From Amphiscolops sp. MND2022 (lineage: Eukaryota): DNA of 64,000 nt. The stretch is from positions 6,574,001 through 6,638,000 of the forward strand of contig OZ076409.1 of NCBI GenBank assembly GCA_964187785.1. The letters are read 5' to 3'. Below the pieces are notes generated by a model. It saw only the letters and a list, made by a program, of their open reading frames with translations. It did not search any database and was not told the DNA's origin. The number at the start of each line of letters is the position of its first letter. Positions within the stretch are counted from its first letter, which is position 1. The translations under genes and the position numbers were made by a program. This document shows positions 45,878 to 64,000 of this stretch, one piece after another.

Positions 45878-48115
45878 GGTTACCATCATTGAACCAAGTT
45901 ATGCTGCCTGAGGTTATTGATCGATTTCGTAAATGATGAATACTGCAGCCGCATAATGAAAACTTCTCATTATGATCATCGCTACTGTAGTCTTTTTAGT
46001 CGCCGCTTTCGTAGAAAACGCGAACTCAGTAGTAGCTTTGTTCTCACTCACTTAGAGGGGGAATAATATCTCAAAGTCAAAAAAGGGAATAAGATCTAAA
46101 ACTTCAGGACGGGAATGAGATCTAAAATCACTAAATTGTAAATCCTATTCTTTAGACACTATTCCCCCTCCCAAAATAGCTATGGCTCAGTTGGTGAAGG
46201 CGAAGAGGGCGGAAAATATCCCGGTGCTTAGCGGGCGTCTTGTTTTAAAACTGACAGTTGTGTATAAATTTTTATAACTTTGCTTTCTGATAATTTCTTG
46301 CACCACTCAGGCCTAGGGGTTAGCGCTAAGAGTGACAGTGGCTGAGAGCAGGAGTTCGTGAGTCCGAATCCCGGGATGGTTTTTTGATTTTCGCAAAAGT
46401 AAATGAGATCATAACCCCTGTTTGGGTTTTCGGAGCTGTGCGACTTTTTTGGGAAACGTTTTCATTTGATCAAAAGGTACCTTCACTTTTTGAAGCGTTT
46501 CCGGTTTGGAATAAAATTTTGCAAACCTGAAGGGTCTCCTATTGGGTATTTCGGCACCTTTTTAATGAATTTCTTTGTTTTCAGTTAGTTAAGGAACAAG
46601 TGTTTCTCGAGTCTCAAGGGTATGCTTTCGGGTAGTTTTGGGAATTTTGATATTTTTAGTCCCTTTGCAAATTTAAATAGCTATTGAACCTTGAGCGACG
46701 CGCCGACTTACCGTATATTCCGGCGTATTTTTCCAAAATTTTGATTCTGAAAAAACAGTCTTCGTTTTATGTTCGTCGTATAAGCCCCCTCCCCAAACTT
46801 TTGACCACCAAAATTTCAAAAAAAAACGTGCTTTTACGCCGGAATAAACGGTAGGCCATTACCAGCTTGACTTGTTCATTGTAAAACAGCTGATAGACAT
46901 TTGAACAAATGATTCCGATGAAACTATTTTTAAAGAAATAATGGTCATAAATTATTAATTTTTCATCACGAAAATAATCGTTTATTCTCAGGTAGGGTTT
47001 AGGGAAAAAATTTATTTCACATACCTAAAATAATTCATTATTTTGGCGCCTAATAAATTGGGTGGTGAAGTAGGTGGAAAGCAAATGAATATCTGTGGAC
47101 GTTTATTTAGCCCTTCGGAGCTCAATCTTGGGTAATCAAGGCACAACGTCACACCAATGCACTGGGAGATATCGAGTTGTTCTTATCGGTGAACTGTGAA
47201 TAAAAAATACTGCGATGCCGAATTGATTTCAATTTTTGTTTTTGAAAATGCTTTGGAATCTACCATTATTTCCATTGTTCATTTAAAAAACATGGAAATA
47301 ATCATTATTGTTATGGAGTCTCTGATGGGGTTGAAAGTTGAAACAGCAGTTACCAATGTTGGTACTGGTTTTGATGGAACGCTGATTCGTTCAACTTGGA
47401 ATCGAGTTTGAACCGCTTTTTTAGGCGAATCACGATCGGAGAAAAAATCACCGAAAGAGTTTGATACAGCACGTTTCGTGATTTTTTTTTGCATTGAAAT
47501 GCCGGGTTTTTGCTAGTTAGGAAAACGTTTTAGAAAAAACTCGAAAAATATTCTTGGCGCTTCAGCCACCAAGGTTTTTCGAAGGTTACCATCATTGAAC
47601 CAAGTTATGCTGCCTGAGGTTATTGATCGATTTCGTAAATGATGAATACTGCAGCCGCATAATGAAAACTTCTCATTATGATCATCGCTACTGTAGTCTT
47701 TTTAGTCGCCGCTGTCGTAGAAAACGCGAACTCAGTAGTAGCTTTTCTTTTTATTTTCCGACCCCACATTTTCAATGGGGGAGGAAAATCATGATCTGTG
47801 ATGCGTTTTTTCCCAAATTTTGCCATAAATCGACTCTTCACTTCATTCACTCTTCTCTACCTACACTCTCTCATTCACTTTGTTCTCACTCACTTAGAGG
47901 GGGAATAATATCTCAAAGTCAAAAAAGGGAATAAGATCTAAAACTTCAGGACGGGAATGAGATCTAAAATCACTAAATTGTAAATCCTATTCTTTAGACA
48001 CTATTCCCCCTCCCAAAATAGCTATGGCTCAGTTGGTGAAGGCTAAGAGGGCGGAAAATATCCCGGTGCTTAGCGGGCGTCTTGTTTTAAAACTGACAGT
48101 TGTGTATAAATTTTT
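45878..48115. repeat. Direct duplication (45878-46273 and 47584-48115) including a HINE family 2 element
   Basis: Near-identical blocks; the first lacks ~135 bp present in the second. Confidence 0.85.
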
Positions 48116-48796
48116 CATTACAGTGGGGTAACCGGCAAGGCCTTCCAAAACTCGGAAAATGTTGGGCAAAAACTCGGGAATGCATGGGCGAGTTTTGTTG
48201 TTCATAACTGAAAATCTCGGAAACGCATGGGCGAAGTCAACTAATTGTTGAACATAATCTGTCCATTCGTTTCCCACCAAGTGTGGCCTTTCAATTTGAT
48301 AGAAACTTTGAATACATATCAAAAAATGTCCGAGATATACCTAATCAACTAAAGATAAGGATTTGCCGATTATCAGAATTTTAGTAAACCCTTCCCAGGT
48401 ACTTTTTTTCGAAATAAATTTGAATAATGATTATCAAGCTTCCATGCTTCTCATCATTCCACCTTAAATCGAACAACTCTCATTTAATATAATTGAATAA
48501 GCTTAAACTCATACTATATATCAATCAATAGGAAGATTAGGAGATTACAAGAAGATTAGATTGGTATCATAAGATCTTTCCGGGGGCTTGTCTTTTTGAA
48601 CAATTTAATCCTCATTACTTTTTGTTTGACTCAATTGTTTAATGTTATTGTTGTCAATTATTACAATGTCGCTCCACTACTGTTCTTTTGCCCCAAATCG
48701 AAAACAAAATGATTCACAAGAGACTGATTCAATTAAGAAACATAATGGAAAAGATATCACAATTGTTATGGCAATGGATACAAAAAATGAATAAAT

Positions 48797-50365
48797 TTAA
48801 AAACTAAACTGACTTCTGCAATTATTGGCTGCGGAACGACGATATTCGTCATCGCCATTTAAATTGTCCTGGAAACAATCGATAGATACTCGCACAGTTT
48901 TCAGCAGAAAATCGTTGTTAATTGAAAATTTTAGGCTTTTGATAATGTGGCAGAAAGTTTTAGGGAAGATTGGTGGGAGCATATCCCATTGTCGGCCTAG
49001 GGTACTGTCCCATTCTGCATTTTTGTGGAACTTTTCTGAGTCAGGATCTATATGAAATTTGACTTGGTGTCCAGAACCCATTAAAAAGATATTCTTGGAA
49101 ATTTCGTCAACCAAGCAAATGTCCTGATTCATCATTGTGCGTTTGGACTGGGATATCCCGACCAAACGTTTCAGCGCTGACAGGTAATGAAAAGCTCTAT
49201 TCACAGGTGAACAAGCTGCGGACAAGTCCAGAGCTTTCTGCTTCATGTAGTTTGCTTCTGTCAACACTAGCTTTACAGCTGGGTAAGTGATGGAGTAGCA
49301 TATGTCTTCTTCATCGACCAGTTTCGCCATGGCCTTCTTCATCTCCACGTCGAACCATATCTTCTCCAATTTCATCGTGAAGACCGTGCTCCTAATGTTT
49401 ATCGTAACGTGGTCACCTGATAACAGAATGCGAATATTCAGTTTCATTTAGTAATAATAATTTATTAACCACTTGAGAAAGATTTATGCGACAAAGTTTC
49501 TATAAGCATGTAAATTTTTCGAGAGGACGCTCGTGGCAAAAAACTTGGTTTCAGTTTTTTTGTTTGATTTTTTTTAGTACCGTAGAAGTTAGACTAGTAA
49601 TAATCAAATTGATCATTTACCTGCTGATGCAATACCATTTTCGCAGGGTACAAGGTCCAGAAGTTCGTCTTTCTCGGCAAGACTCGCAATATATGCGGCA
49701 ATATCAATTTTCTGTCTGGGAGTGGTTATAGTGGGTTCTGGTTCTGCATCTGTTTCTACTACTCTCTTTTTTTGCCGCGATGGTTGGACATCTTCGGGCT
49801 CCGAATCAAACTCTGAAGGCTGCCTCGTGTCAGGATGAGTCCAGTTCTTCGGACGAATTTGTTCATAGTCGATGAACTGGATGTCCTTTGTGCGCCCGTC
49901 GAAGGAAACAGCCATATTTTGCTGGAATGGGTCATTCATGACAACATAACCCGAGTTCAGCAGCTTCGACTCCTCGGCATCTTTTCTAACCTCTTCCAAA
50001 CTAGGAATGTCCGCTGGTGATTTCCGTGATGTCCCAGTGAAAAAGATTCTGTCCCCTAGTTGGCGCTTTCTTGGGTCGGGGATGTCAAAAACGGTTTCTG
50101 CTGGCTTCTTGGATTTCCGGCGACCGCGGACATCTTGTAATACTATACATTTTCTAACCGGCCAGCAATTTTGGGGTGTGTTGGGGGACACTTCAATTCT
50201 GTCTGATCCGAATCGCTTCACAAGTTTATCGGGCCAATTGAGGTATTTCACTCGGATTCCAAATGATCCTTCAAACCCAATGATGCGAGCATCTTCCCAA
50301 ATTTTTGTTGCAGGATCCAAAACTTGAACTTGCTCTTTCATATCAAAAACACTGATGAAATCCAT
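48797..50365 (-). CDS. Tudor/chromo-barrel-like protein, two exons (50365-49621, 49416-48797)
   Basis: N-terminal EQVQVLD..KIWEDARII......IRVKYLNW is a Royal-family barrel pattern; cag|gtaaat donor and tatcag|gt acceptor join the two track ORFs in frame. Confidence 0.6.
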
Positions 50366-50642
50366 TTCAATTAATGAAATTAGTGCTTTATTTTTCAAGA
50401 AATTTAATTTCGTAAACGAGTATTTTCAGTATTGCATTTGCCACTAATGTTTATCAAGCAAGTTTGAGCAAATAAAATCGTTATCGGGACAAATGATTAT
50501 CAAGTGAGTTTGATCGACTCAAATCGTTACATACGCATAAGATGAATTTTAAATGTCAGACGCATATTAATTAATTGTCAGACGCATTTTAAATGACAAT
50601 AAACCCCCAGACACTTTTGCACGGAACATCCAAAACGTAGCA

Positions 50643-50968
50643 CGATAAATTTATAATTTTTTGTCAAACGCTTTTCGATCAAGCAGACGCATTTCATAAT
50701 CCACGTGAGTGTGAGCACGCTAAAACTACAATTACTCGATTTATTTCCGATATAATCAATAACATCAATAACGTAATACGATAATTTTATAATATTTTGT
50801 CAAACGCTTTTCGATCAAGCAGACGCATTTCAAAATCCACGTGAGTGTGAACACGCTAAAACTACAATTACTCGATTTATTTCCGATATAATCAATAACA
50901 TCAATAACGTAATACGATAATTTTATAATTTTTTGTCAAACGCTTTGCGAACCAGCAGACGCATTTCA
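50643..50968. repeat. About 2.3 copies of a 136-bp tandem repeat in a divergent intergenic region
   Basis: ttgtcaaacgc recurs at 50661, 50797 and 50933. Confidence 0.9.
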
Positions 50969-51074
50969 AGAATGGAAACGCTAGTGTGGAAACGATAAAG
51001 TGTCAATACGCTTTTGAAAAAACAACAACTACTAGAATAACTTCCAATATAACTTTCGACGTACGACAATCAGG

Positions 51075-54000
51075 ATGACAATACACCCCGAGAAGCTTCT
51101 GCACGATTACACTGAAACAATTGATGGAAAAAGTTTTGTGGATGCTAAAATTTTGGATGTTTTTGCTGGGCATATTATAAGAGAAAAATCTCGAAAACTG
51201 AAAAGCGCGATCGAAATAGTAATTGAAGGAACTGAATTAAAACTCGAAGATTGTGTAATAAACAAAAAAAACTTGCTTTGTTGCAATTGGAATATTGCAA
51301 ATAATAATTGTTCGTGGTTTACAAAGTGGGTTTCCATGGACACAATTACGAAGAAGATACGTGTCCTATTTTTTCCCAAATACGCCGCAGCTAATTCCCG
51401 ACTCACAACCTTTTGTCAATCCACTTCCAATGCCAACAATCCCACTGGAGCAGTTTTCTAAACCTGAATCAGGTTTCAGTCAGAAGATGCATACAATTCT
51501 CGCAACATTAGCAGCTACAGAACAAAAGCGGATTCATACTAAGGCCCAGAAGACCTCTCTGCATCAATTTGAAGCCAAGGCTCTGGTTAAGGGTGTTTTT
51601 TCAAACTATTTATCGTACGAAAAGCTGAAGTCAGACATATTTATCTGTACTAAAACTGGTAGTTGGATAAATATGATCAACACGCTGAAAAAAACTTTCC
51701 ATGTCGATGGACTGGGTCAAAAACAACTAATTCCTGGTTATACGGCGATCAAAGAGATGTCAAAACCGATGATTTCAAAGTTTATATCCCTATTCAAACC
51801 AAAAAACACTTTCTCGGGATTCAGAATTGATCTTGTACGTGCTATCAAAGTCATGACATTCATTCTGTTCAAAGGAAGAACTGATTTGCAAGGTCTGAAA
51901 GTTGATATTTGGGGAGATGGTGTTCAAATAGGGAAAAAGGATCAAACTCGAATGGCCTTCCGTTTTCTCGAAGGAACATCTATCAGCAATCAGTCATCAG
52001 ATGCACTCTTCTCTTTTGCTGTTTTCCAAGGTATGTTCTGCTATTTTGTCCTGCTGAATCTTTAAATATAATTTAGCTCTAGGTTAGCTTCGCACACTTT
52101 ACAATACGTGTTTACAGGTCACGACGGTCGTTGGTTGCTAGAGCAAAATGTCGGGTACCTGGAACTAGGTGAGCAAGATTCCTCTTGGCTTTACCAGCAG
52201 ACGAAACAACTCCATGACGCCGGAGTCCTTTTAACATACAGTGGAGATCAACCATTCCTAAATCGCCTTCTCATTGGAACCTCTGTTGATCACATGGAGA
52301 GTGAAGAAAATCCATCAAAATTGCAGATGTATCTTGGGAATGACGATTCAGTTAAACCAGAAACCGTGCACGAAAAAAGTGGACATCGAGGTGATGTTCG
52401 CCTACCATTTCGAACCACCATTCCTCATGAAAGTTTGACGTTTTTGCCAGACATCAGATGCGTTTGTCCCGACGGCACTCATGCAATAACAAGGTGTGTC
52501 GAGGGAGACATTAGAAAGTTCATGGAGTTGAAAATTCTCCAATCTGAAGATGACTCAGCTACAGTTGATTATATTAGGGAAAATTTTCAGCGCAATTTGA
52601 CCGAGAGAGGTTGGAAAGAGCCTGGCTTCGAATTTGACATTGACAAACGCAACAAAAAATGTGCTCCCATTTCCCTTAGTGGCAGAGAAGCTATCACTGG
52701 CATTGCTGATATGTACGAACTTGCTGAGGCTGGTGTTCAGCATGAACTGTTCGAAGGAGTTTTTTCCGAGAACAAGACTGTTGGAGCCTTGTCGGGTACA
52801 AAAAGTGCAAGCATGAATGTGTTGAAAAATCTTCATCCCAATTCATTCGAAAATATCGAAAGCCCATGTCAAATGAAACTTTTGGTTGCAGCTGAACTCT
52901 GGAGAAAGTCACTAAATCAGCTTACCGTGCTGATGAGGACGAGGAAGAAATTCGAAGAACAGGACTTTTCCGACTATAAATACTGGTCAGAAATCCACTA
53001 TCACATTTCGATTGTACTGTTCGATGTAAAACTAGGTTTGACACCGTACAGACTGAAACTGTGCCTGATTCCCCAGCTGTTAGAAGGAGGCTACATTGAA
53101 TCACCCTTTAACCACCTGTGCGAAGGCCCCGAAAAATCAAATCATCATGTCCATAGAGACTTTCAGCAAAAGACCATGCGAGGGGGAGGGACAGTTCGAC
53201 ACGCCGACCCCATGTTTCTCGAAATGTTTTTCACTTTCTGTTCTGGTCTCCGGTTTTCGACTTTGGAAGGCACAATCGACGAACAGCTCTCACTTTGCCA
53301 TCAACGGCTTTTCAATGAACCCATAGAGGTGAACCTATCTTTTTTAGACTCCCTGGGACCAACTGAGAAAGCCATCATTCCCGTTGGAAAAGTTCGAGAG
53401 AAGTCCCGCCTTTTCTTGGGTAAGGATTTTTTTTGTACCTATATGCCCACGTCCAACTTTTTTGGTTATGAAACCTAAGTGGTATAAATTTAGCGAAATT
53501 TAGTTGGATAAACCAACAATATAGTGTGAATTTTGCTTTTCTTGCGACTCCGAAATAAATGTAGTGGATCGTTGAACAAATGTTTGACTTGAGTTTTGCT
53601 GAATATTTGTATTGCACCGCAACACGTTGACAAATATTAGTCCTAAGTTACTCGGATGAAATACTTCCTCAAAACAGCAACAGATTCCAAGTACCACTGG
53701 CGTAGTGGTTACTTCGTGCGACGTTCCGTCGTTCCGCCGCTCGTTCGCTCTTGGTATACAGGTTCGCTTCTCTGCGCCGCTGTTGGTGCAGCCTTCGGTA
53801 ACCAGTGGCTGGTATTGTGTCTGGTATTGTGTGTGGTAGCCATTGGCTGGTATTACTTGCCATAGATGTCGATTGCCGGTGACGACCGCGCATTCAACAA
53901 CTGTGGCAATTAGTGAGTAGATTGAGATTGGAATTCTCTCTGGCGGAGAGAGAAATCCAATCTCAATCTACTTATTTTTATCTTTTCAACTTATTATTTG

Positions 54001-55017
54001 CAATTAGTTCTTCGCTTAACAGTGAGTTTTGAATGATGCAATTACATACCTGTTCAGAACGATCGTAGCAAAGAAAATAGAATACAGTAGTGATTTTATT
54101 AAAAGCAACAAAAGGCAAATTTTAGAATCAAATATCTATCAAAAAGCATTTGACTGAAGGACTTGATATGTTTTGATTGAGAAATTATATTAAAGTCTCA
54201 ATGAAACCACGCTGTAAAAATAGGCGTTTTCGAAAATACTAAGTTTTTAATAATCTCACTACTGTACATGCAAAACCGTCTTAGAATTATACGGCAATAA
54301 GCACGTTCGGCAATGGAAGGACCACCTTAGAAACCTGTTGTTACATATTCGAAGTTCGGTATATAACCAATTGTTTTCACAGAACTAAACAATATTCCGT
54401 TTGCTCCAGGATCGAGATTCTTTCTGCACGGGAAATTCAATAAAGAGCAACGAATTCAACATGAAAACCAAGATGGAAAAACTCTTGGACCCGCTGAGTG
54501 TCTCAAAAAAGTTATCAAAAAAGCGGGAGGGAAAGTTCTAGAACGAGCAGCATTGAATACTCTCCTCTCCAGACACTCCAAGTTGCCACACATTTACGTG
54601 GTTCTCCAAAATGACACAGATCTTATTAGTGCAACAACGTCGTGTGATTCTTTGCCACAAGTGACAGAAGTTATGGCCAAAGGAAAATGCAAAAAAAGGA
54701 AACTAAATGAACCAAGTCGAACCAGTTACGTTTTACGACACTTGGCCAGTCGTGGACTTACGTTTCTATCCGTTGACTATATTTTGAAAAGTATCGAAAC
54801 TTCAACAATTTTGGATGTGGAGTCTTTTGCGTTCAAACCAGGGCCAGACATCCCATCAACTTCTGTTCGTGATCATCGCAAAATTTTCCTTCTTCAGAGG
54901 AATCCCGAACTACAAAACACAACTTCAGCTATAACATCGGTACTTCGTAAACGACGAGAAATGCTGAAGAAGCGCGAACAAGAAAAAATGAATGACGCTC
55001 AGAAAGAACACGATTAA
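51075..55017 (+). CDS. Transib/RAG1-like DDE transposase with C-terminal BRCT-like domain; exons 51075-52030, 52118-53419, 54410-55017; +1 frameshift in the A8 run at ~51264-51271
   Basis: Ordered motifs IWGDG, YSGDQPFL, CPDGTH, LTPY and CEGPEKSN parallel RAG1 CDG, YDEK, IDALH, ITNY and SEGNESGN; GT-AG introns join in frame; LFLGSRFFLHG...IKKAGGKV is BRCT-like. Confidence 0.62.
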
Positions 55018-55441
55018 TCATCCTCAGACTCATCAGACTGAGAATCATTTGATAATCATAATTGATAAATCGTGAAAACTTTGATTCGAACAATAATAAA
55101 TTATTTTTACCTGTTTTTATTGTCAAAATTTAATTGAATCATTCGAATTGTTTTAAACAAATTCAAAATAGAAACGTACCAAAAAGTAGCAGCGCAAAAT
55201 ACTAAGTAAAAACCGAAAAGAAAGAATAAAACCAAATCTTTCAAAGACCAAGAACTGGAATTCAAAATTCTAAAGTATTACTACAGTAAACTGCGAAATT
55301 GCATCAAGTGCTGAAATACTTCGCTGAAAACAAGTTTCGAGATTTAATAATAATATATATCAATACAATGAAATAAAATAATAAAGGTTAAGAATATGTA
55401 AAACAAAAATTTTATCTCGAAAATGGTTTTCAACGAACTAA

Positions 55442-56961
55442 TCAATCAAGAGACCAAAAAGTGTTTCGACCGAGTTTTTTGTCAACAATTTGAAATAGGT
55501 GAGTTAATGATATGTTCCTGTTTGGGAAATTGAGAGACATGTACCGGTTGATAGTTTGCACAAATTTTCGTCGATTGCTCTTGGATCGGCTGTCATTTTT
55601 GGAATTGAAGCTGAGGACATGTAGTGCTTTGGCCAGAAGCTCCCATTTCATTAGCCTACAGTTCCCAATGGCACTCTCTAGAATAACTTTCGTCATTAAC
55701 GATAAGAAATGTGGGAAACATTTCTCAAGAGGTTCATCATTGTCCCGTTCCCTCTGGTAAACAGTCAAAGTCGTGTCTAAAAACATATATGCACAAGCAT
55801 TAGTAAAACTGCCTCGAACCCATAGAAGAAGTAAAACCCGAATTTTTTTGAGAAATTAACTTAATCCGATTTTAATTTTAAAAATGAAGATTTTTTCGAT
55901 TTTTTTGCTTTTTACCTTTTATCTCTTCTAACAAACAACTGAGAAACAATTATATGAAAACTGAATTTCAAAATTACCTAGATCACAGATGGTGAGAAAA
56001 TTGAATCCCACGGCCACGCTGTCCGCACAGGTTCTGACCATATGTATCATGCCTGCTGGCATGATCATTGACTCGCCGCCTGTTATCGTCACTTTAAACA
56101 CTTGACTTTGGAGGTGGGTGTCACTTGGTAGGAAAACATTTTGTTTTGTTGCCTCAATGCACCAATTCTCGAGAATTTCTTGGTTTCGAACTGTTCCAGG
56201 AATCATGAAAAACTCTTTTTTACCGTGAAGAAGATGGTAAAAGACGCTGGTATTCGTGTAGTCAACATGCCAAGGTGTAATGGAACCTTTTTGACTGAGA
56301 AGAATATAGCAATTTTGCTCCAGCTCAAAATTGAATAAATGAGACACTGAAAGTTCTTTAACTGCCGTTGGTACATCGAAATGCAAGTTCTTTGTGAGAC
56401 TGGAGCTAAGATCAAGGACATTCATTGGGCCGCTCATAGCTCCAAACTCAATGGCATTTACAAAATCTTTTCCTGAGAGTGTCAAACACAGGAGTTTTTG
56501 CAGCTGAAATAGACATGTGTTGTATATGAAAAAAGAATACACTTCGAAGATCTACAATTTTGGTTTTAAAATATAAAAACCCTAATATTTTTTAAATGTT
56601 CGGTTTTCATTGGTGAAGTTAAAAAGACGAAGCCAAAAACGAACACTGACAGGTTTGTACATTCGGACAGATAATTGTACATCTTCTGCGTGTAGACAGT
56701 CTTCGAAGATGTTTCTTCGCGCTCCAAAGTTGATGTTGGGCAATTTCATACCATCCATATGTCCTCGAACAATACAGGCTCTTTTCCGCTGCAGCTCCTC
56801 CTCTATTTCGCTGCTGGTAACATTGGTGCAGCAAACTCGCATCTCGGACCCGGAAGATTCTCTGATTACATCCAGCAGCTCATGATGCTCTGCTTCATCC
56901 ACAAATGCAACCAGAGAAACTTCTTCATCTTCTGCTTGAACCTGTTCGTAGCTGTTGGAAT
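55442..56961 (-). CDS. JmjC histone demethylase-like, KDM2/KDM7 type; exons 56961-56651, 56503-55978, 55776-55442
   Basis: TPWHVDYTNTSVFYHLLHGKKEF...PAGMIHMVRT..DSVAVGFNFL keeps the HxD..H and 2-oxoglutarate Lys positions; the spliced NFLTICDLDTTLTVYQRE has PHF8-like spacing. Confidence 0.85.
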
Positions 56962-59900
56962 CTGAAACGAAAATTGTCAATATCATAATAAAGTTTTTTA
57001 AATGATTGGTAGATGTTTTTCGAATACTTTTGATGAGTATCAGTGGATTCGTTTGGCAAGTAGTAAAATTGGTATGTAGAAATTTTGATATAGGTAAAAC
57101 AATAGGATTTTATTGTACCTTGGGGATTGTGTGTGGCTACTTCTTCACTTTCGTCTTCCTCACGGTTCTCTTCCTGGAGGGATTCTTCATTGCTGTCAGA
57201 ATCTGAAACAAACATCGTCAAAATCAATTTAACGTTATTGAGATGATTGGTTGTTTGTCGAATATTTTCGATACGTAATATTGATATAGGTAAACAAGTC
57301 GAAGTCGTGTCTAAAAACACATATGCACAAGTATTAGTAAAACTGCCTTGAACACATGGATGGAACAAAATCCGATTTTTTTAAAAATTAACTCAATCCG
57401 ATTTTAATTTTAAAAGTAAAGATTTTTTGATTTTTTTTGCTTTTTACCTTTCATCTCTTTTAACAAATAACTGAGAAACAATATTTTATGAAAACTGAAT
57501 TTTATTGTACCTTGGCGAACGTGTGTGGCTACTTCTTCTTCACTTTCGTCTTCCTCACAGGTCTCTTCCTGAAGGGCTTCATTGCTGTCGGAATCTGAAA
57601 CAAAAATCGTCAAAATCATTATAAAATTATTGAGATTTGTGGATGTTTTTCGAATATTCTCGATAAGTATCAGTGGAATCGTTTGACAAGTAGGCAAATT
57701 GGTGTAGAAAAATTGATATAAGTAGAACGATAGGATTTTATTGTACCTTGGCGAACGTGTGTGGCTACTTCTTCTTCACTTTCGTCTTCCTCACAGGTCT
57801 CTTCCTGGAGGGCTTCTTCATCGTTGTCAGAATCTGAAACAAAAATCGTCAAAATCATAATAAAGTTAGAGAAGATTGGATGTTTTTCGGATATTTTCGA
57901 TAAGTATCAGTGGAATCGTTTGACAAGTAGTCAAATTGGTGTAGAAAAAATGATATAGGTAAAACAAAAGGATTTTATTGTACCTTGGCGAACGTGTGTG
58001 GCTACTTCTTTTTCACTTTCGTCTTCCTCACAGATCTCTTCCTGGAGGGCTTCTTCATCGTTGTCAGAATCTGAAACAAAAGTCGTCAAAATCATAATAA
58101 AGTTAGAGAAGATTGGATGTTTTTCGGATATTTTCGATAAGTATCAGTGGAATCGTTTGACAAGTAGTCAAATTGGTGTAGAAAAAATGATATAGGTAAA
58201 ACAATAGGATTTTATTGTACCTTGGCGAACGTGTGTGGCTACTTTTTCACTTTCATCTTCTTGACGGTTCTCTTCTTGGAGGGCTTCATTGCTGTCGGAA
58301 TCTGAAACAAAAATCGTCAAAATCATAATAAAGTTAGAGAAGATTGGATGTTTTTCGGATATTTTCGATAAGTATCAGTGGAATCGTTTGACAAGTAGTC
58401 AAATTGGTGTAGAAAAATTGATATAGGTAAAACAATAGGATTTTATTGTACCTTGGCGAACGTGTGTGGCTACTTTTTCACTTTCATCTTCTTGACGGTT
58501 CTCTTCTTGGAGAGCTTCATTGCTGTCGGAATCTGAAACAAAAATCGTCAAAATCATTATAATGTTAGAGAAGATTGGATGTTTTTCGGATATTTTCGAT
58601 AAGTATCAGTGGAATCGTTTGACAAGTAGTTCACAAATTGGTGTAGAAAAATTGATATAGGAAAAACAATAGGATTTTATTATACCTTGGCGAACGTGTG
58701 TGGCTACTTTTTCACTTGCATCTTCTTGACGGTTCTCTTCTTGGAGGGCTTCTCCATTGCTGTCAGAATCTGAAACAAAAATCGTCAAAATCATTATAAA
58801 GTTATTGAGAAGATTGGATGTTTTTCGGATATTTTCGATAAGTATCAGTGGAATCGTTTGACAAGTAGTTCACAAATTGGTGTAGAAAAATTGATATAGG
58901 AAAAACAATAGGATTTTATTGTACCTTGGCGAACGTGTGTGGCTACTTTTTCACTTTCATCTTCTTGACGGTTCTCTTCTTGGAGAGCTTCATTGCTGTC
59001 GGAATCTGAAACAAAAATCGTCAAAATCATTATAATGTTAGAGAAGATTGGATGTTTTTCGGATATTTTCGATAAGTATCAGTGGAATCGTTTGACAAGT
59101 AGTTCACAAATTGGTGTAGAAAAATTGATATAGGAAAAACAATAGGATTTTATTATACCTTGGCGAACGTGTGTGGCTACTTTTTCACTTGCATCTTCTT
59201 GACGGTTCTCTTCTTGGAGGGCTTCTCCATTGCTGTCGGAATCTGAAACAAAAATCGTCAAAATCATTATAAAGTTATTAAGATTTGTGGATGTTTTTCG
59301 AATATTTTCGATAAGTATCAGTGAAATCGTTTGGCAAGTAGTCAAACTGGTATGTCGAAAAATTGATATAAGTAAAACGATAGGATTTTATTGTACCTTG
59401 GCGAACGTGTGTGGCTACTTCTTCTTCACTTTCGTCTTCTTGACGGTTCTCTTCTTGGGGAAAGTGTGTGACTACTTCTTCTTCACTTTCGTCTTCCTCA
59501 TAGGTCTCCTCCTGGAGGGCTTCATTGCTGTCGGAATCTGAAACAAAAATCGTCAAAATCATCATAAAGTTATTGAGAAGATTTGTGGATGTTTTTCGAA
59601 TATTTTCGATAAGTATCAGTGGAATCGTTTGGCAAGTAGTCAAACTGGTATGTCGAAAAATTGATATGAGTAAAACGATAGGATTTTATTGTACCTTGGC
59701 GAACGTGTGTGGCTACTTCTTCTTCACTTTCGTCTTCTTGACGGTTCTCTTCTTGGGGAAAGTGTGTGACTACTTCTTCTTCACTTTCGTCTTCCTCATA
59801 GGTCTCCTCCTGGAGGGCTTCATTGCTGTCGGAATCTGAAACAAAAATCGTCAAAATCATCATAAAGTTATTGAGAAGATTTGTGGATGTTTTTCGAATA

Positions 59901-60085
59901 TTTTCGATAAGTATCAGTGGAATCGTTTGGCAAGTAGTCAAACTGGTATGTCGAAAAATTGATATAAGTAAAACGATAGGATTTTATTGTACCTTGGCGA
60001 ACGTGTGTGGCTACTTCTTCTTCACTTTCGTCTTCCTCACAGGTCTCTTCCTGGAGGGCTTCTTCATCGCTGTCAGAATCTGGTT
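56962..60085 (-). repeat. Tandem exon+intron duplication array (about 12 units of mostly 230-300 bp) encoding acidic micro-exons of the JmjC gene
   Basis: Each unit is tttcag|ATTC..(DSDSNEALQEE...ATHVRQ)..CAAG|gta; phase 1-1. Confidence 0.85.
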
Positions 60086-60752
60086 CGATGTGAACTCGAC
60101 GGTACCGACGTGACGTCCTTCTCTGTTCTCTTCTTCTTCTCGAATCCATCCTCGCTTGCCATCGTGGGTGTTCGATCTTCTTCTTTGGGGTCCCTTTGAT
60201 TTTAATCAGGTCTTTGATTCGATGGGAATAACCTTTCCCCTCCCGCCGTCTTTTTTCCGACCAGCTGTACTCTCCTGGCACATTGCCTTTGGGCTTTTTT
60301 TTAAGAACAGCGGATTCCCCTTTAAGATAAAACGATTTGTATTTTTGCTTCAGGCAATCGTAAGCAGAACTTTCCTTGCACAATTCCTCGATGTTTTCTG
60401 GTGTTGGTTCCAACAAATTTCCTGGGTACCATTCCTCCCTTTGCAACTCAAACACTTTCAGGGTGCAAGTTCTTCCGAGGGAGTGTTGAGCGGTCCTGTG
60501 ATAGCTAAAGAACGGTCCTCCGTCTTTCTCGCCGCATCCACAAAAGCGACAAATAAAATTTGCCCGACTGTAAATTTTTTGTGCAATGCAGGTGAACTCC
60601 AGCTGGTGTTCTTCAACAGGTCTCTTCCTTGGTGCCCAGTCTTTGTACATGTGCCTCTGGCACGCAACTTTTTCGCTGAATTTTCTCCGGCATTCTGAAA
60701 CACATATTCCGATTAGTATTGGTGAAAAACATGTTTGAAAAAAATTCGACAT
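59992..60752 (-). CDS. 5' exon of the JmjC gene: Cys/His zinc-finger-like region plus basic tract
   Basis: ECRRKFSEKVACQRH and CRFCG...HSLGRTC; ends with the first acidic unit and a gtacaa donor; true start uncertain. Confidence 0.55.
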
Positions 60753-61309
60753 TTTAAATTCTATTTCAGATATCCGAACAGATCATCAAAATGATAATGC
60801 CATTTAAGACTTGGAAACGCATGGGCAATTTGAAACGCAGAAATACATGGCTTTTTCATTGCTTTTCATCACTCGGAAACGGATGGGCGAAAGTTCAATT
60901 CATTTTATGCCAATTAGCTTACGTTATTTCATACTTCGGTTTTTATCCCCTATTTTGAAACGATAATTGAAGGTTCGCACGTCATCAGGTAATTATCACC
61001 ACAGTTGATTTGAAAAGCGTCCTTAAATGAGCTCATCTTCATGCAAATCTAAATAGCACATCCGCAAAGCTATTACCAACGGTATGTACTACTTTTTTCA
61101 ATAATTAAATAATTCATTATCAGAAATGAATAATTATCATATATGTACTATTTAATACGAAGATCACCATTTTTCTTTAATTATAATATACCACAGTTGA
61201 TTGACGAAGCGTCTTTGAATTAGTTCGAATTTGGATCGCTCAAGGAAAGGATTGAGCACTCACCATTCAATCCAAACAGTAGCTAGAAAACAGTCTCTTT
61301 TACATAACG

Positions 61310-63725
61310 ATGAACCCTCCTCAACATGAGAAATCTCTCTCTTACACTGTCTTGGGGACTAGCCCGGCTGTGACAAATTCTGTTGCTCCAAACGAAACAT
61401 TTGAAAGATTTTCGACTCCATTTAAACCGAATGAAAGCAACTTTGCATACTACATGAGTACTCCCTTGGATCAATCTAGTTCGACACAACAGTTGTATGG
61501 ATCACCCATTGTGTCATCTAAAAGCTGGCCAAGTTTCACCCAAGTTGAACAAAGGATATTTTCACAAATCTCTAATATAGAAGGTGTGAATTATGAAGAT
61601 AGCCCTTCGGACGTCTCGATAATGGTACAAGCTCAACTTGCTGCAAATCAAATGACACCTCTGTTAATCAACACTGCAAATCAACTGAACCACACTCCGA
61701 ATGACAGTACGACGAATCAACTGAGCCACACTCCAAGTGACAGTACGACGAATCAACTGAGCCACACACCGAGTGACAGTACGACGAATCAACGGAGCCA
61801 CACCCCAAGTGACAGTACGAGCCACACTCCGAGTGACATCATGGCAAGCCAACTGAGCCGTTCTTCAAGTGATATCGCGGCAAGTCAGCTGAGCCAAACT
61901 CCGAGTGATATCATGGCAAGTCAGCTGAGCCGTTCTTGCAACGACACCTTGGCAAACATGGAAAGATGCCAACAGGAGATAGCGAACAAGCGGAAACTTA
62001 ACCATTATGATGAGGAAAACCATGGCCCAAAAAGTAAACGATGTGTTCCCAAAAACTATGAGAAAAATTTGCGAGAAATTACCCCAGTGCACCTAACATT
62101 ATGCACAACTGTTGAAGCGCGACTCTTGTCAGACCTTTATGACATAATGAAGCAATTCAAATTCGCAAAATCTCTAACCAGCATTGACAAAACCAATTTG
62201 TTTGGGGACCTCATTGCTTATTTGCTGGAATTTTCTATTCCAAAGTGTAGAGATCGCAAAATTTTGAGCATTACAACTCATGCCGTTTTACAAATGGTCC
62301 CTCAAATTCAGCACAATAGAAGTTCTAACTCAAGTGACTTGTTAGTCTTGCAAATTGAAGATGAAGCTGGGTACTTGGACAGCTTCAGAATTCCTCACAT
62401 TGTTGGAGAAGCAATGTTAATATATTTTGAAGCTGTACGACCGTACTTCATAAAACCTGAAGGTATCGACCAGAAAAAAAGGTTCATGCAGTCACCCAGT
62501 CAAGGGATACCACCATATTACGTCATGACGGAGCCATTCTTTGTCAACAGCTGGGGAAAAACACAATTCAAAGTGCGGAACATAAGAAATCGGATTGAAC
62601 AGGTAACTAATCAAATACTGTTTGATAAGAATTACTTGACTCAGTTTGATTTGTATTAGTCGATAGTAACCATAAGACATAATCACAAGTTGGAATATCA
62701 AAAACATCTTCCTTTTGCAGTTTTCGCTTATTTCAATAACTATCTGCGTGTTCTAGTTTTCCGACTTGACAAGAAACCCAGCCGAACGTGAAATGGACAG
62801 ATTGGAAAGAACTGTCAAACTGATGACACTTTCAAAATGTTCAGCAGAAGAAGAATTTTGGTCTGAATCTTACCTGATGATGGAAGTCAAAAAACATTTG
62901 AGGCCCAGCGGACATTACGATGACAGAACGGTCATGAAAGTAGTCGAAAAAAGAATTCAAGCACTTAGGCATCAAAGAGCAGATATTAGGGCGGCCGAAT
63001 ACAAGAGCCACTACCCTACATCACTAGCTGACCCTGCGAAAGAAAGAGAGAGAATAATCGATTTTGCAAACTTGGTCAACTGGCCCCACTTCACAGATGT
63101 AAAGAGAGTCATGGATGCTTCTTCTAGAATGTCTGGGGTATCAAGATCTCGACAAAGTTCGCGCAAAAAAGCATTCAATCCAAATCTAGAATGGAGACTT
63201 TGCAATACCCCTTACTTCCAAGATGACTTGAAAGATAGATGCGAAAACCAATTCTGGCCAGGCGTCTGCGATGTTGTCTATCCTACAATGGGTCGAGGAA
63301 TAATCGCGACCAAACCATTTAACAAGGATGACGTTATTTTTGACTACCACGGACATGTAGAAGAAAACACGAACAACGTCGACTACTACTGCAGTCTGGA
63401 CCCAGAGAACCGCAAGCCAGAATACTGCATCGAGGTTAAAACAAGGCCGGGAAGAATTATTGATGCAACCTCGGAAATATGCCCCATCCACAACGATGGC
63501 AGAAGGTGCCTTGCTCGATTGTGCAATTACTCAAGTACCTTTGATGGTGGAAAGACCAACCCAGCTTGTAACATGAAACTGGTCGAATTGAAATGTACAT
63601 ACTTGAAAAATAATCCGCGTTACGTGCTACTTATTGCAAAGCGGAAAATTGAACCCCTGGAGCAGCTGATGTTTGATTACATGGACCCCGAAGCCAATAG
63701 AATTTTCGGCGGTAATGCCGAGTAA
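61310..63725 (+). CDS. SET-domain protein (SETD8/PR-Set7-like C-terminus); exons 61310-62602 and 62757-63725
   Basis: GRGIIATKPFNKDDVIFDYHG, IDAT, LARLCNYS and EQLMFDY are SET motifs; cag|gtaact and ttctag| join the two track ORFs in frame. Confidence 0.8.
61679..61935 (+). repeat. Coding 36-bp minisatellite (NQLSHTPSDSTT-type units)
   Basis: About 7 degenerate 12-aa units in ORF 61310. Confidence 0.85.
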
Positions 63726-64000
63726 AACCATTGATAAACTCGAACTTTGTTTTTAACTTATCAGTTTTTATATAATTTTTGTTGGAATATTAGTCATTGT
63801 CATCTAGTCAAATACAGTGGTGATATTTTTAAAAGCAACAAAGCCGCTTCAAAGTCTGCGGCAGGTGAAAAAAAAACTTCAAAGTCATCCCAAAACATGT
63901 ATTTTCGAAAAAATCTTCAAACAAACATATTTGTAAACTAGATAAAAATCTAGAATACGTTTATTTTTATAAGGTTTCATAAACCACTGCCGTTTTAGAG

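Follow-up and report, generated by a model that had tools for sequence, protein, structure and literature searches.

An 18.6-kb multicopy DNA transposon of Amphiscolops with a RAG1-like transposase and predicted histone-methylation cargo

A 64,000-nucleotide stretch of the genome of Amphiscolops sp. MND2022 (contig OZ076409.1, positions 6,574,001 to 6,638,000; C1:6574001-6638000 in our numbering), called the window below, contains from position 48116 onward all but the last 2,760 bp of an 18,645-bp DNA transposon, which is present in many copies and was recently active. Its four genes are arranged as two divergent pairs, a Tudor-like gene (-) with a transposase-BRCT gene (+), and a JmjC gene (-) with a SET gene (+). 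We consider it likely that this is an autonomous cut-and-paste transposon of an undescribed lineage of the Transib/CMC ('CMCT') clade, and that its cargo acts on histone-lysine methylation to keep the copies transcribed and mobile. A sequence-only reading of the window had proposed a recently inserted element of at least 16 kb with two divergent gene pairs; the map of open reading frames (ORFs) agrees with the pairs, the full length exceeds what that reading could see, and ~30 copies that are 99-100% identical agree with a recent insertion.

The ends of the element were located by comparing seven copies. In all six of the other copies fetched, similarity to the window starts exactly at 48116 and the flanks are unrelated, in agreement with the abrupt junction previously noticed there; base composition has no sharp shift at this point. 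The right end lies past the window edge at window-equivalent 66760 (position 2760 of L011, the piece into which the element continues). Both ends are closed by perfect 23-bp terminal inverted repeats (TIRs) with the terminus 5'-CATTACAGTG..., and the right TIR, at L011 2738-2760 (window-equivalent 66738-66760), is the inverted copy of the left end that the sequence-only reading had expected further along the contig. Direct repeats of 2 bp flank seven of seven copies of this family, called family A (TT, CT, AC, AA, AT, TA, AT), the window copy having TT on its left side and TT again at L011 2761-2762. As for other lengths, a duplication of 3 bp does not hold for the copies inspected by eye, those of the window and of C1:6.29M, and with a 5-bp duplication that includes CAT/ATG the repeats come out inverted, not direct.

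Close to the left TIR the motif CTCGGRAA...TGGGC occurs three times (Table 1), and one inverted copy stands 53 bp from the right end of the element; Tandem Repeats Finder (TRF) reports a 22-bp repeat at 48147-48189. These subterminal repeats are putative transposase-binding sites. The right arm, which ends ...CCCCACTGTAATG, is 99.7-99.8% identical in 6/6 other copies and contains no ORF longer than 94 aa in L011 1-2760. In the part of the window before the element (1-48115), 43.7% of bases are matched again elsewhere in the window, reflecting dense interspersed repeats. None of these repeats recurs in 48116-64000 (0 cross matches), where only the element's own tandem arrays are repeated, so the absence of the earlier 48-kb repeats from the element was correctly recognised in the sequence-only reading.

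Genome searches covered the 1.07-Gb assembly. Only part of the candidates was scored (91 of 1030 for the transposase ORF, 150 of 1448 for JmjC, 124 of 845 for SET and 142 of 438 for Tudor-like), which gave 92, 153, 130 and 146 matches, respectively; all numbers of copies are thus minimum values. With coordinates collated by hand, the four ORFs stand in the window's order and orientation at no fewer than 45 loci (at least 12 large contigs; identity 66-100%), and four further loci have all of them except one. The genes are therefore multicopy, linked and bounded by shared termini, rather than single-copy or unlinked, and their co-linkage at at least 45 loci with different flanks supports the earlier view that the cargo is an integral part of the element. 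A search with the left end (first 400 bp) gave 30 matches at ≥99% identity and 10 at 94-95% (40 of 197 candidates scored). Moreover, the end regions are 99.5-99.9% identical between copies, and the 468-aa transposase exon ORF is intact in most young copies. With ~30 near-identical copies that have intact ORFs, the element is therefore probably active now or was so very recently.

Some copies depart from this pattern. Left-end matches of 94-100% without any of the four genes were seen at C4:23785148, C1:87860747, C7:54612647, C12:24404378, C8:9194977, C6:71770050, C10:8571379, C3:45569550 and C4:37824862; these loci may be truncated copies or non-autonomous derivatives with internal deletions. 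At C3:62104688-62127394 two degenerate copies lie in tandem ~12 kb apart, with 66-79% protein identity and many stops, and look like an old duplicated insertion.

The divergent intergenic regions span 50366-51074 (Tudor-like/transposase) and about 60753-61309 (JmjC/SET). The first contains a 136-bp tandem repeat, a putative promoter region; in the C11:36.87M copy the spacing from Tudor-like to transposase gene is 136 bp shorter (2320 vs 2456 bp), and thus the unit number of this repeat differs between copies. Among 13 ORFs scanned with Pfam, matches were obtained to BRCT_2, JmjC and SET, and the long ORFs without a family match are 48797-49447(-), 49613-50425(-), 51262-52065(+), 52072-53478(+), 59868-60782(-) and 61283-62659(+).

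Three related families, B, C and D, were read as small pieces only. Family B proteins are identical to those of the window at 38% (JmjC), 34-35% (SET), 31-34% (Tudor-like) and about 37% (transposase) of positions. Its Tudor(-), JmjC(-) and SET(+) genes stand at 15 loci with spacing similar to the window's, and at the one locus fetched (L036) a RAG1-like transposase-BRCT gene (+) with the same motifs lies between the Tudor-like and JmjC genes. Family B ends in a 21-bp TIR that opens with CATTACA as in family A, 2-bp duplications (AT, TA) were found at both insertions examined, and its C6 copy measures 19,369 bp. In families C and D the transposase, SET and Tudor-like genes occur in other orders. 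Elsewhere in the genome we observed the orders SET(-), Tudor(+), transposase(+) at C13:54.66M and transposase(+), Tudor(-), SET(+) at C10:35.45M, as well as a JmjC exon 39-42% identical to the window's at >40 further loci. Since the first-look candidates already number 1030 for the transposase, 1448 for JmjC and 845 for SET, the superfamily may form a noticeable part of the genome.

Selection was assessed between the window and two copies of an older subfamily. The nonsynonymous-to-synonymous ratio (pN/pS) was 0.44 and 0.33 over four genes, and 0.37 and 0.29 over the three cargo genes, with a synonymous excess at p = 1.6e-5 and 1.4e-7; counts per gene are small (7-19 synonymous differences). 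Compared with each other, the two old copies gave a corresponding ratio (dN/dS) of 0.84-3.2, about 1 in three genes, where the JmjC value reflects one synonymous change; this is consistent with neutral decay of old copies after insertion. Because the four-gene order is kept in the distant family B and the cargo has a pN/pS of 0.29-0.37, the cargo is, as judged from these comparisons, a long-standing and selected part of the element under purifying selection.

The predicted exons of the transposase gene (Table 1) are collinear with a 1027-aa homologue (P0026) and with an uninterrupted 1017-aa ORF of family D (L031), and two in-frame stops at 52063-52071 fall in a short predicted intron. No Pfam family matched the L031 ORF at E up to 10. 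In a profile search of PDB sequences, the single match below E 1e-3 was that of the N-terminal region to 9k9w (Glr2806, a repeated helical protein) at E 2.9e-5, with per-stretch E above 2, and we regard this match as spurious; a genome search with Pfam RAG1 (PF12940) was silent, as were its controls, and is uninformative. At the corresponding C-terminal position, family B has a weaker BRCT_2 match (E 3e-4), and so do 3 of the 17 distant homologues scanned, none of the 17 having any other Pfam domain. Homologues numbered 40 in the first search, and a profile search of 1.84 billion representatives gave 602 clusters at E<=1e-3 and 205 at E<=1e-30; none of the eight homologue clusters looked up had an informative name. 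The lack of a Pfam model together with 602 clusters of relatives therefore suggests that this transposase family is widely overlooked in annotation.

The affinity of the transposase comes from its predicted structure. An AlphaFold2 model of L031 residues 200-780, made with 43 aligned sequences, had a predicted local distance difference test score (pLDDT) of 82.3 and a predicted template-modelling score (pTM) of 0.79. In a Foldseek search of the PDB, ranks 1-46 were all RAG1, amphioxus RAG-like protein (BbRAGL) or HzTransib (best E 2.2e-6, template-modelling score 0.45-0.52), followed by Hermes at E 1.3e-2. VIA-align superposed the model on RAG1 496-1008 with Z 19.0 and a root-mean-square deviation (rmsd) of 3.7 A over 376 residues, and over up to 402 residues in other RAG1 entries; Z was 17.0 for BbRAGL, 16.7 for HzTransib, 12.2 for P element and 8.0 for Hermes, with model residues 35-548 covered. 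The nearest named clusters of the ESM Atlas are RAG1_RNase_H (0.91-0.95). By predicted fold, the transposase is thus RAG1/Transib-like. Conservation among the aligned homologues (L031 numbering) is 17/17 for D316, 17/18 for D320, 23/23 for D400 and 22/23 for D470, 23/23 for H473, E480 and D482, and 22/22 for E692, E695 and H699. In the model, the first long strand (115-125) carries D316 and D320, D400 comes immediately behind the fourth strand (195-200), and helix 493-501 opens with E692; D316/D320, D400 and E692 fit the acidic triad of a DDE/D RNase-H fold and would be the catalytic residues.

Taken with its ends, the element fits an undescribed lineage of the CMCT clade, with CATTACA termini, a 2-bp duplication and a C-terminal BRCT as hallmarks. 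The available part of Kojima 2025 (PMC12730594) gives 5'-CA...TG-3' termini and a duplication of 2-5 bp for this clade, and both features are present here. The termini of family A (CATTACAGTG...) and family B (CATTACAAGA...) both open with CA, and family A has ACAGTG from position 5; their first seven bases differ from the canonical CAC... heptamer, which resembles a recombination signal sequence, in the form quoted in the accessible text of 10.64898/2026.08.26.747230. The sequence-only reading had predicted the 5-bp duplication of Transib, and this prediction failed, the duplication being 2 bp in 9/9 insertions (seven of family A, two of family B). Because of the 2-bp duplication and the missing sequence match, the element is not a canonical Transib, although its fold says RAG1/Transib. 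Duplication length is not decisive by itself, since 5-bp, 3-bp and TA duplications are reported for one bona fide Transib lineage in the same source as far as its text is available (10.64898/2026.08.26.747230).

Among the cargo, the JmjC exon matched PDB sequences of KDM2A (3.4e-18), PHF8 (2.1e-17), KDM7 (9.6e-16) and PHF2 (5.6e-10), and by sequence the JmjC protein is closest to KDM2A/PHF8/KDM7. The HVD...H iron ligands and the GKKEF lysine, which binds 2-oxoglutarate (2OG), are intact; family B has HVD, GEKEF and LHF. The gene does not have the architecture of host KDM2/KDM7/PHF8 proteins (PHD, or CXXC with F-box and LRR): as the sequence-only reading had remarked, no PHD, CXXC or F-box was found by Pfam in any ORF of the element part of the window. 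At E up to 1e-5, the JmjC exon matched no longer protein. The predicted first exon encodes a basic tract and the first acidic unit in addition to two C2H2-like Cys/His clusters, and the last exon, with a CFPHF motif, is conserved in family B. Between them lies a tandem array with nine candidate mini-exons of 81-87 nt, all multiples of 3, with acceptor TTTCAG and donor GTAYAA, which would encode an acidic repeat (SDSNEALQEE..EDESE..VATHVRQ). The spacing from JmjC to SET gene varies from 6.5 to 11.5 kb among young, otherwise near-identical copies, which is consistent with a variable unit number in this array.

The SET exon as a single sequence matched only SETD8/KMT5A in the PDB (6.3e-5). With a profile of four families, KMT5A reached 2e-12 and made up all of the top 14 distinct sequences, followed by KMT2A at 3.7e-3. 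By sequence, the SET protein is hence closest to SETD8/KMT5A, and both enzyme types named in the sequence-only reading, KDM2/7 for JmjC and SETD8 for SET, agree with the nearest PDB relatives. The motifs GRG, DYHG and FDY are invariant in the SET domains of the four families; the cofactor motif is NYS in the window's family, against the canonical NHS in families B, C and D, and this could mean an altered or lost methyltransferase activity in the youngest and most successful family. Upstream in the gene are 36-bp coding repeats (61679-61955). In family C (L048) both parts of the gene stand within one 680-aa ORF, and so the upstream 458-aa ORF is assigned to the SET gene.

Both exons of the Tudor-like gene are collinear with a 453-aa homologue (P0237), and families B and C have the gene uninterrupted in a single ORF. 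Its ORF had no Pfam match and no match to PDB sequences at E up to 10. An AlphaFold2 model from 10 sequences had a pLDDT of about 75-93 for residues 1-80 and about 90 for residues 1-40. Its top Foldseek matches were tandem Agenet, tandem Tudor and MBT readers (E about 1e-3), and VIA-align gave Z 5.0-6.1 and rmsd 1.4-2.0 A over 52-60 residues to the tandem Tudor of UHRF1, TDRD3, SMN and the PHF1 Tudor; all 50 rows listed were Royal-family domains, and whole Tudor domains were covered (54 of 55 residues for that of TDRD3). With moderate confidence, the protein is predicted to have a five-stranded Tudor-type barrel, and it may be a methyl-lysine reader, the conserved W22, F30, W43 and W64 (A5 numbering) being candidate aromatic-cage residues only. 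In the ESM Atlas its best score (0.83) was at chance level, and a complex prediction of the Tudor-like protein with the transposase core scored 0.00, which gives no verdict and is evidence neither way. For this protein and the transposase alike, the identities proposed in the sequence-only reading agree with the predicted folds and lack a sequence-family match.

In the reading that we favour, the transposase would bind the TIRs and subterminal repeats, excise the element and reinsert it with a 2-bp stagger, and the accessory module would target histone-lysine methylation on nucleosomes of the element or its surroundings. One methyl-lysine mark would be bound by the Tudor-like protein, and a mark linked to repression or repair would be erased by the JmjC enzyme, whose nearest relatives have H3K9me2, H3K27me2, H4K20me1 or H3K36me2 as substrates. 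The SET enzyme would write another mark, by analogy H4K20me1. As a net effect, copies would stay transcribed and mobile despite host silencing. Such counter-silencing is the role we infer from the examples of VANDAL, the fungal TET/JBP transposons and the red-algal Plavaka cassette.

Several points weigh against this reading. The gene models are drawn from homology and splice motifs only, the enzymatic activities of the cargo are predictions from sequence, and the activity of the window SET is uncertain given its NYS. Nothing in our results favours one kind of chromatin effect over another, be it anti-silencing, repair or targeting. The Tudor call comes from a model with an overall pLDDT of 69 and Z of only 5-6 (<8), and it has no sequence-family match. 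With a profile of 23 transposase homologues, no RAG1 or Transib chain was found among PDB sequences at E up to 10; thus, the Transib-like assignment made in the sequence-only reading holds for fold and protein-language-model features, and not for a sequence-profile match to RAG1 or Transib. To our knowledge no CMC transposase structure has been solved, so that Transib, Chapaev, Mirage and EnSpm are not distinguished by the fold search. Finally, C(2)C and H(3-4)H motifs, a hallmark of the CMCT clade according to the available part of Kojima 2025 (PMC12730594), are not evident by eye in the transposase consensus, which has only C-x-C (CVCPD in the window), H-x-C-E and N-H-H-x-H.

As to classification, we lean only slightly against a place on the CMC side (Chapaev-, Mirage- or EnSpm-like) or as a sister lineage of CMC and Transib. 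The 2-bp duplication lies within the 2-4-bp range of CMC and is unlike the 5 bp of Transib, in the text available of 10.64898/2026.08.26.747230, and the subterminal repeats and large multi-gene size recall EnSpm and Plavaka. A RAG1-like fold would be expected there too, because Chapaev is placed inside a wide Transib superfamily in the accessible part of Kapitonov and Koonin 2015 (PMC4411706). However, no Chapa zinc-finger or RING was seen in the transposase N-terminus (no Pfam match; few cysteines by eye), no Pfam CACTA-type transposase family was matched, and, given the 3-bp and TA duplications of the Transib lineage mentioned above, duplication length does not decide the matter.

A different role for the cargo, which we think unlikely, is the management of H4K20 or H3K36 methylation at the double-strand breaks of excision and integration; silencing would then not be the target, and the cargo would steer repair, e.g. 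toward homology-directed refilling of the donor site, making a cut-and-paste element net-replicative. All four domain types are known from the double-strand-break response. In 53BP1 a tandem Tudor that binds H4K20me2 occurs together with BRCT repeats, H4K20me1 is written at breaks by SETD8 and taken off by PHF8/KDM7, and KDM2A removes H3K36me2, the mark written by SETMAR at breaks. The BRCT fusion is conserved across families, and a burst of ~30 near-identical copies needs a net copy gain from a cut-and-paste enzyme. Replication-timed transposition could, however, also give such a gain, the substrate specificities are taken from relatives at about 25-40% identity, and no result separates repair from anti-silencing.

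Related to this is a broader and more speculative proposal, quite unlikely in our judgement, in which the element belongs to an old and diversified RAG1-related animal lineage whose conserved module comprises reader, eraser, writer and BRCT. The Tudor-like protein, as a chromatin-reading partner of the transposase, would then be a functional parallel to the PHD of RAG2, and the H4K20 or H3K36 methylation on which cutting and break repair depend would be determined by SET and JmjC. If true, chromatin-coupled DNA cleavage would be an ancestral theme of the RAG1 family and not a vertebrate refinement, and this apparently still active element would be an experimentally tractable system for its study. 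Taken by itself, the idea that the Tudor-like protein is a chromatin-reading subunit of the transposase, like RAG2 with its PHD finger, and sets the landing site or the cutting time, is improbable. The Tudor-like and transposase genes lie head-to-head in families A and B and are adjacent in family D, and the available text of the preprint of Grau-Bove et al. describes readers in transposable elements (TEs) as commonly directing integration. On the other side, the nine insertion sites examined share no evident context other than the 2-bp duplication, and the two enzymes are left unexplained.

It is very improbable that the three cargo genes were captured from the host and are carried as passive passengers without a function for the element. 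DNA transposons do capture host fragments, and the window SET has the non-canonical NYS; but passengers would decay, whereas this cargo is constrained (cargo-only pN/pS 0.29-0.37, p<=1.6e-5), and the same module and order recur in the distant family B, at 33-40% protein identity, with intact ORFs and kept catalytic motifs. The spread of an immobile host gene cluster by segmental duplication, for which the host-like chromatin domains speak and nothing further, has practically no probability and is refuted by shared ends that are exact and carry perfect TIRs, by flanks that are unrelated, by 2-bp duplications in 9/9 insertions and by the spread of copies over at least 12 large contigs.

Table 1. 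Features of the transposon in the window (window coordinates)
Feature	Position	Strand	Details
Target-site duplication, left copy (TT)	48114..48115	.	2-bp repeat at 7/7 family-A and 2/2 family-B insertions
Left TIR, 23 bp, CATTACAGTGGGGTAACCGGCAA	48116..48138	+	Matches the final 23 bp of the element perfectly in inverted orientation; similarity among copies begins here
Subterminal repeats CTCGGRAA...TGGGC, three copies	48151..48235	+	Element positions 36, 58, 101
Tudor-like gene, two exons, ~455 aa	48797..50365	-	Exons about 50365-49619 and about 49429-48800; predicted from homology
136-bp tandem repeat, 2.5 units	50625..50969	.	Between the divergent Tudor-like and transposase genes; TRF
Transposase-BRCT gene, ~1000 aa	51075..55017	+	Exons about 51075-51257, 51265-52040, 52081-53433, 54409-55017
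Predicted RAG1-like catalytic core	51904..53190	+	Motifs DIWGDG (51904), YSGDQPF (52237), CPDGTH (52465), CEGPEKSNHH (53119), TMRGGG (53173)
BRCT exon, transposase C-terminus	54367..55017	+	Pfam BRCT_2, E 2.9e-6, 27.9 bits (cut-off 27.3)
JmjC gene	55442..60752	-	Exons 60752-59868 region, acidic mini-exons, 57109-56582, 56551-55928 (JmjC), 55855-55442; predicted from splice motifs and homology
JmjC catalytic exon, KDM2/PHF8/KDM7-like	55928..56551	-	Pfam JmjC, E 1.1e-9
Tandem array, 237- and 298-bp units, in-phase acidic mini-exons	57119..60054	-	TRF: 8.3 units of 237 bp, 3 of 298 bp
SET gene	61310..63725	+	Exon 61310-62659 (Ser/Thr/Pro-rich repeats and conserved middle domain), exon 62757-63725 (SET)
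SET-domain exon, SETD8/KMT5A-like	62757..63725	+	Pfam SET, E 2.5e-8
Right arm start (~3-kb arm, extends to right TIR outside the window)	63726..64000	+	Arm continues as L011 1-2760

In the neighbourhood of the transposon, a retrovirus-like long terminal repeat (LTR) element of 12-14 kb lies 2.3 kb to its right, from L011 5083 to L012 7458 (window-equivalent about 69083-81458), with a 2091-aa Gag-Pol-type, a 625-aa integrase-type and an 892-aa env-like ORF. At the C7:8.34M copy of the transposon, the right TIR is directly abutted by an inverted, 94%-identical copy of this LTR element.

Transposons that carry enzymes for epigenetic marks are rare, and the published ones that we found act on DNA methylation or hold a single SET gene. 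The present element would add a complete histone-methylation set (reader, eraser, writer) on a transposase of RAG1 fold, kept across families that share only about 35% protein identity. It would also give a new lineage, with CATTACA termini, 2-bp duplication and BRCT fusion, to the Transib/CMC clade, the source of RAG1, and its likely activity permits direct tests between a rewriting of silencing marks and marks that direct its own break repair. In the literature we found no Transib with JmjC and no BRCT-fused Transib-like transposase, a search outside of which lay Repbase, Dfam and preprint supplements, so that an earlier entry there is possible; broader searches on giant transposons with histone enzymes likewise gave nothing relevant. 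As far as found, the combination of a RAG1-like transposase with demethylase, methyltransferase and reader-like cargo is thus undescribed for animals. The sequence-only reading likewise knew of no Transib-like element with this cargo; with the precedents of epigenetic cargo that do exist, the element is less unprecedented than it had appeared.

The nearest known systems by transposase are Transib, RAG1 and ProtoRAG. The core of the predicted model superposes over ~380-400 residues on RAG1 478-1008, BbRAGL and HzTransib, and the element shares with them termini that start with CA and, in family A, contain ACAGTG, as well as TIRs and the cut-and-paste mode. Unlike them, it has a 2-bp and not a 5-bp duplication and no sequence-profile match, it is 18.6 kb long with four genes instead of one or two, and it has a C-terminal BRCT and no RAG2-like gene. 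Within the CMCT clade as a whole (EnSpm/CACTA, Mirage, Chapaev, Transib, Plavaka, ESTA, Lanisha), the termini and the duplication range are alike, and in the available part of that account ESTA, as the present element, is tied to RAG1 by remote homology only (PMC12730594). However, no lineage named in that part matches, and the cargo of the fungal families is TET/JBP, in contrast to JmjC, SET and Tudor here.

Epigenetic cargo that is read as counter-silencing is also described, in the accessible sources, for the fungal TET/JBP transposons (KDZ, Plavaka, EnSpm, ESTA, Helitron; PMC12730594) and for VANDAL/VANC of Arabidopsis. These target DNA methylation, whereas the target predicted here is histone lysine methylation, with writer, eraser and reader together. 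A SET gene linked to a DNA transposon or transposase is known from HarbingerS and an oomycete MuDR, both as cited in the available text of PMC12730594, and from SETMAR. These belong to other transposase superfamilies and have a single cargo domain, SETMAR being a domesticated host fusion that is not mobile. More generally, fusions of chromatin domains with TE domains, including SET-TE, are reported across eukaryotes in what is available of the preprint of Grau-Bove et al.

The red-algal Plavaka elements (EnSpm) with their PAG1-3 cassette (10.1101/2025.02.11.637652) are similar in size (17.4-19.1 kb) and belong to the same broad clade. According to the available text of that source they carry SET and 2OG-oxygenase genes with a tandem array beside the oxygenase gene, just as the JmjC gene (a 2OG oxygenase) of the present element contains or abuts a 2.5-kb tandem array; the resemblance is architectural only, the cargo being compared by description. 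In the red-algal elements as described there, SET is fused to an N6-adenine DNA methylase, the oxygenase has a ParB-like domain and no JmjC assignment, and neither a Tudor reader nor a BRCT is mentioned. Most of their copies are degenerate, whereas the present element has ~30 near-identical ones.

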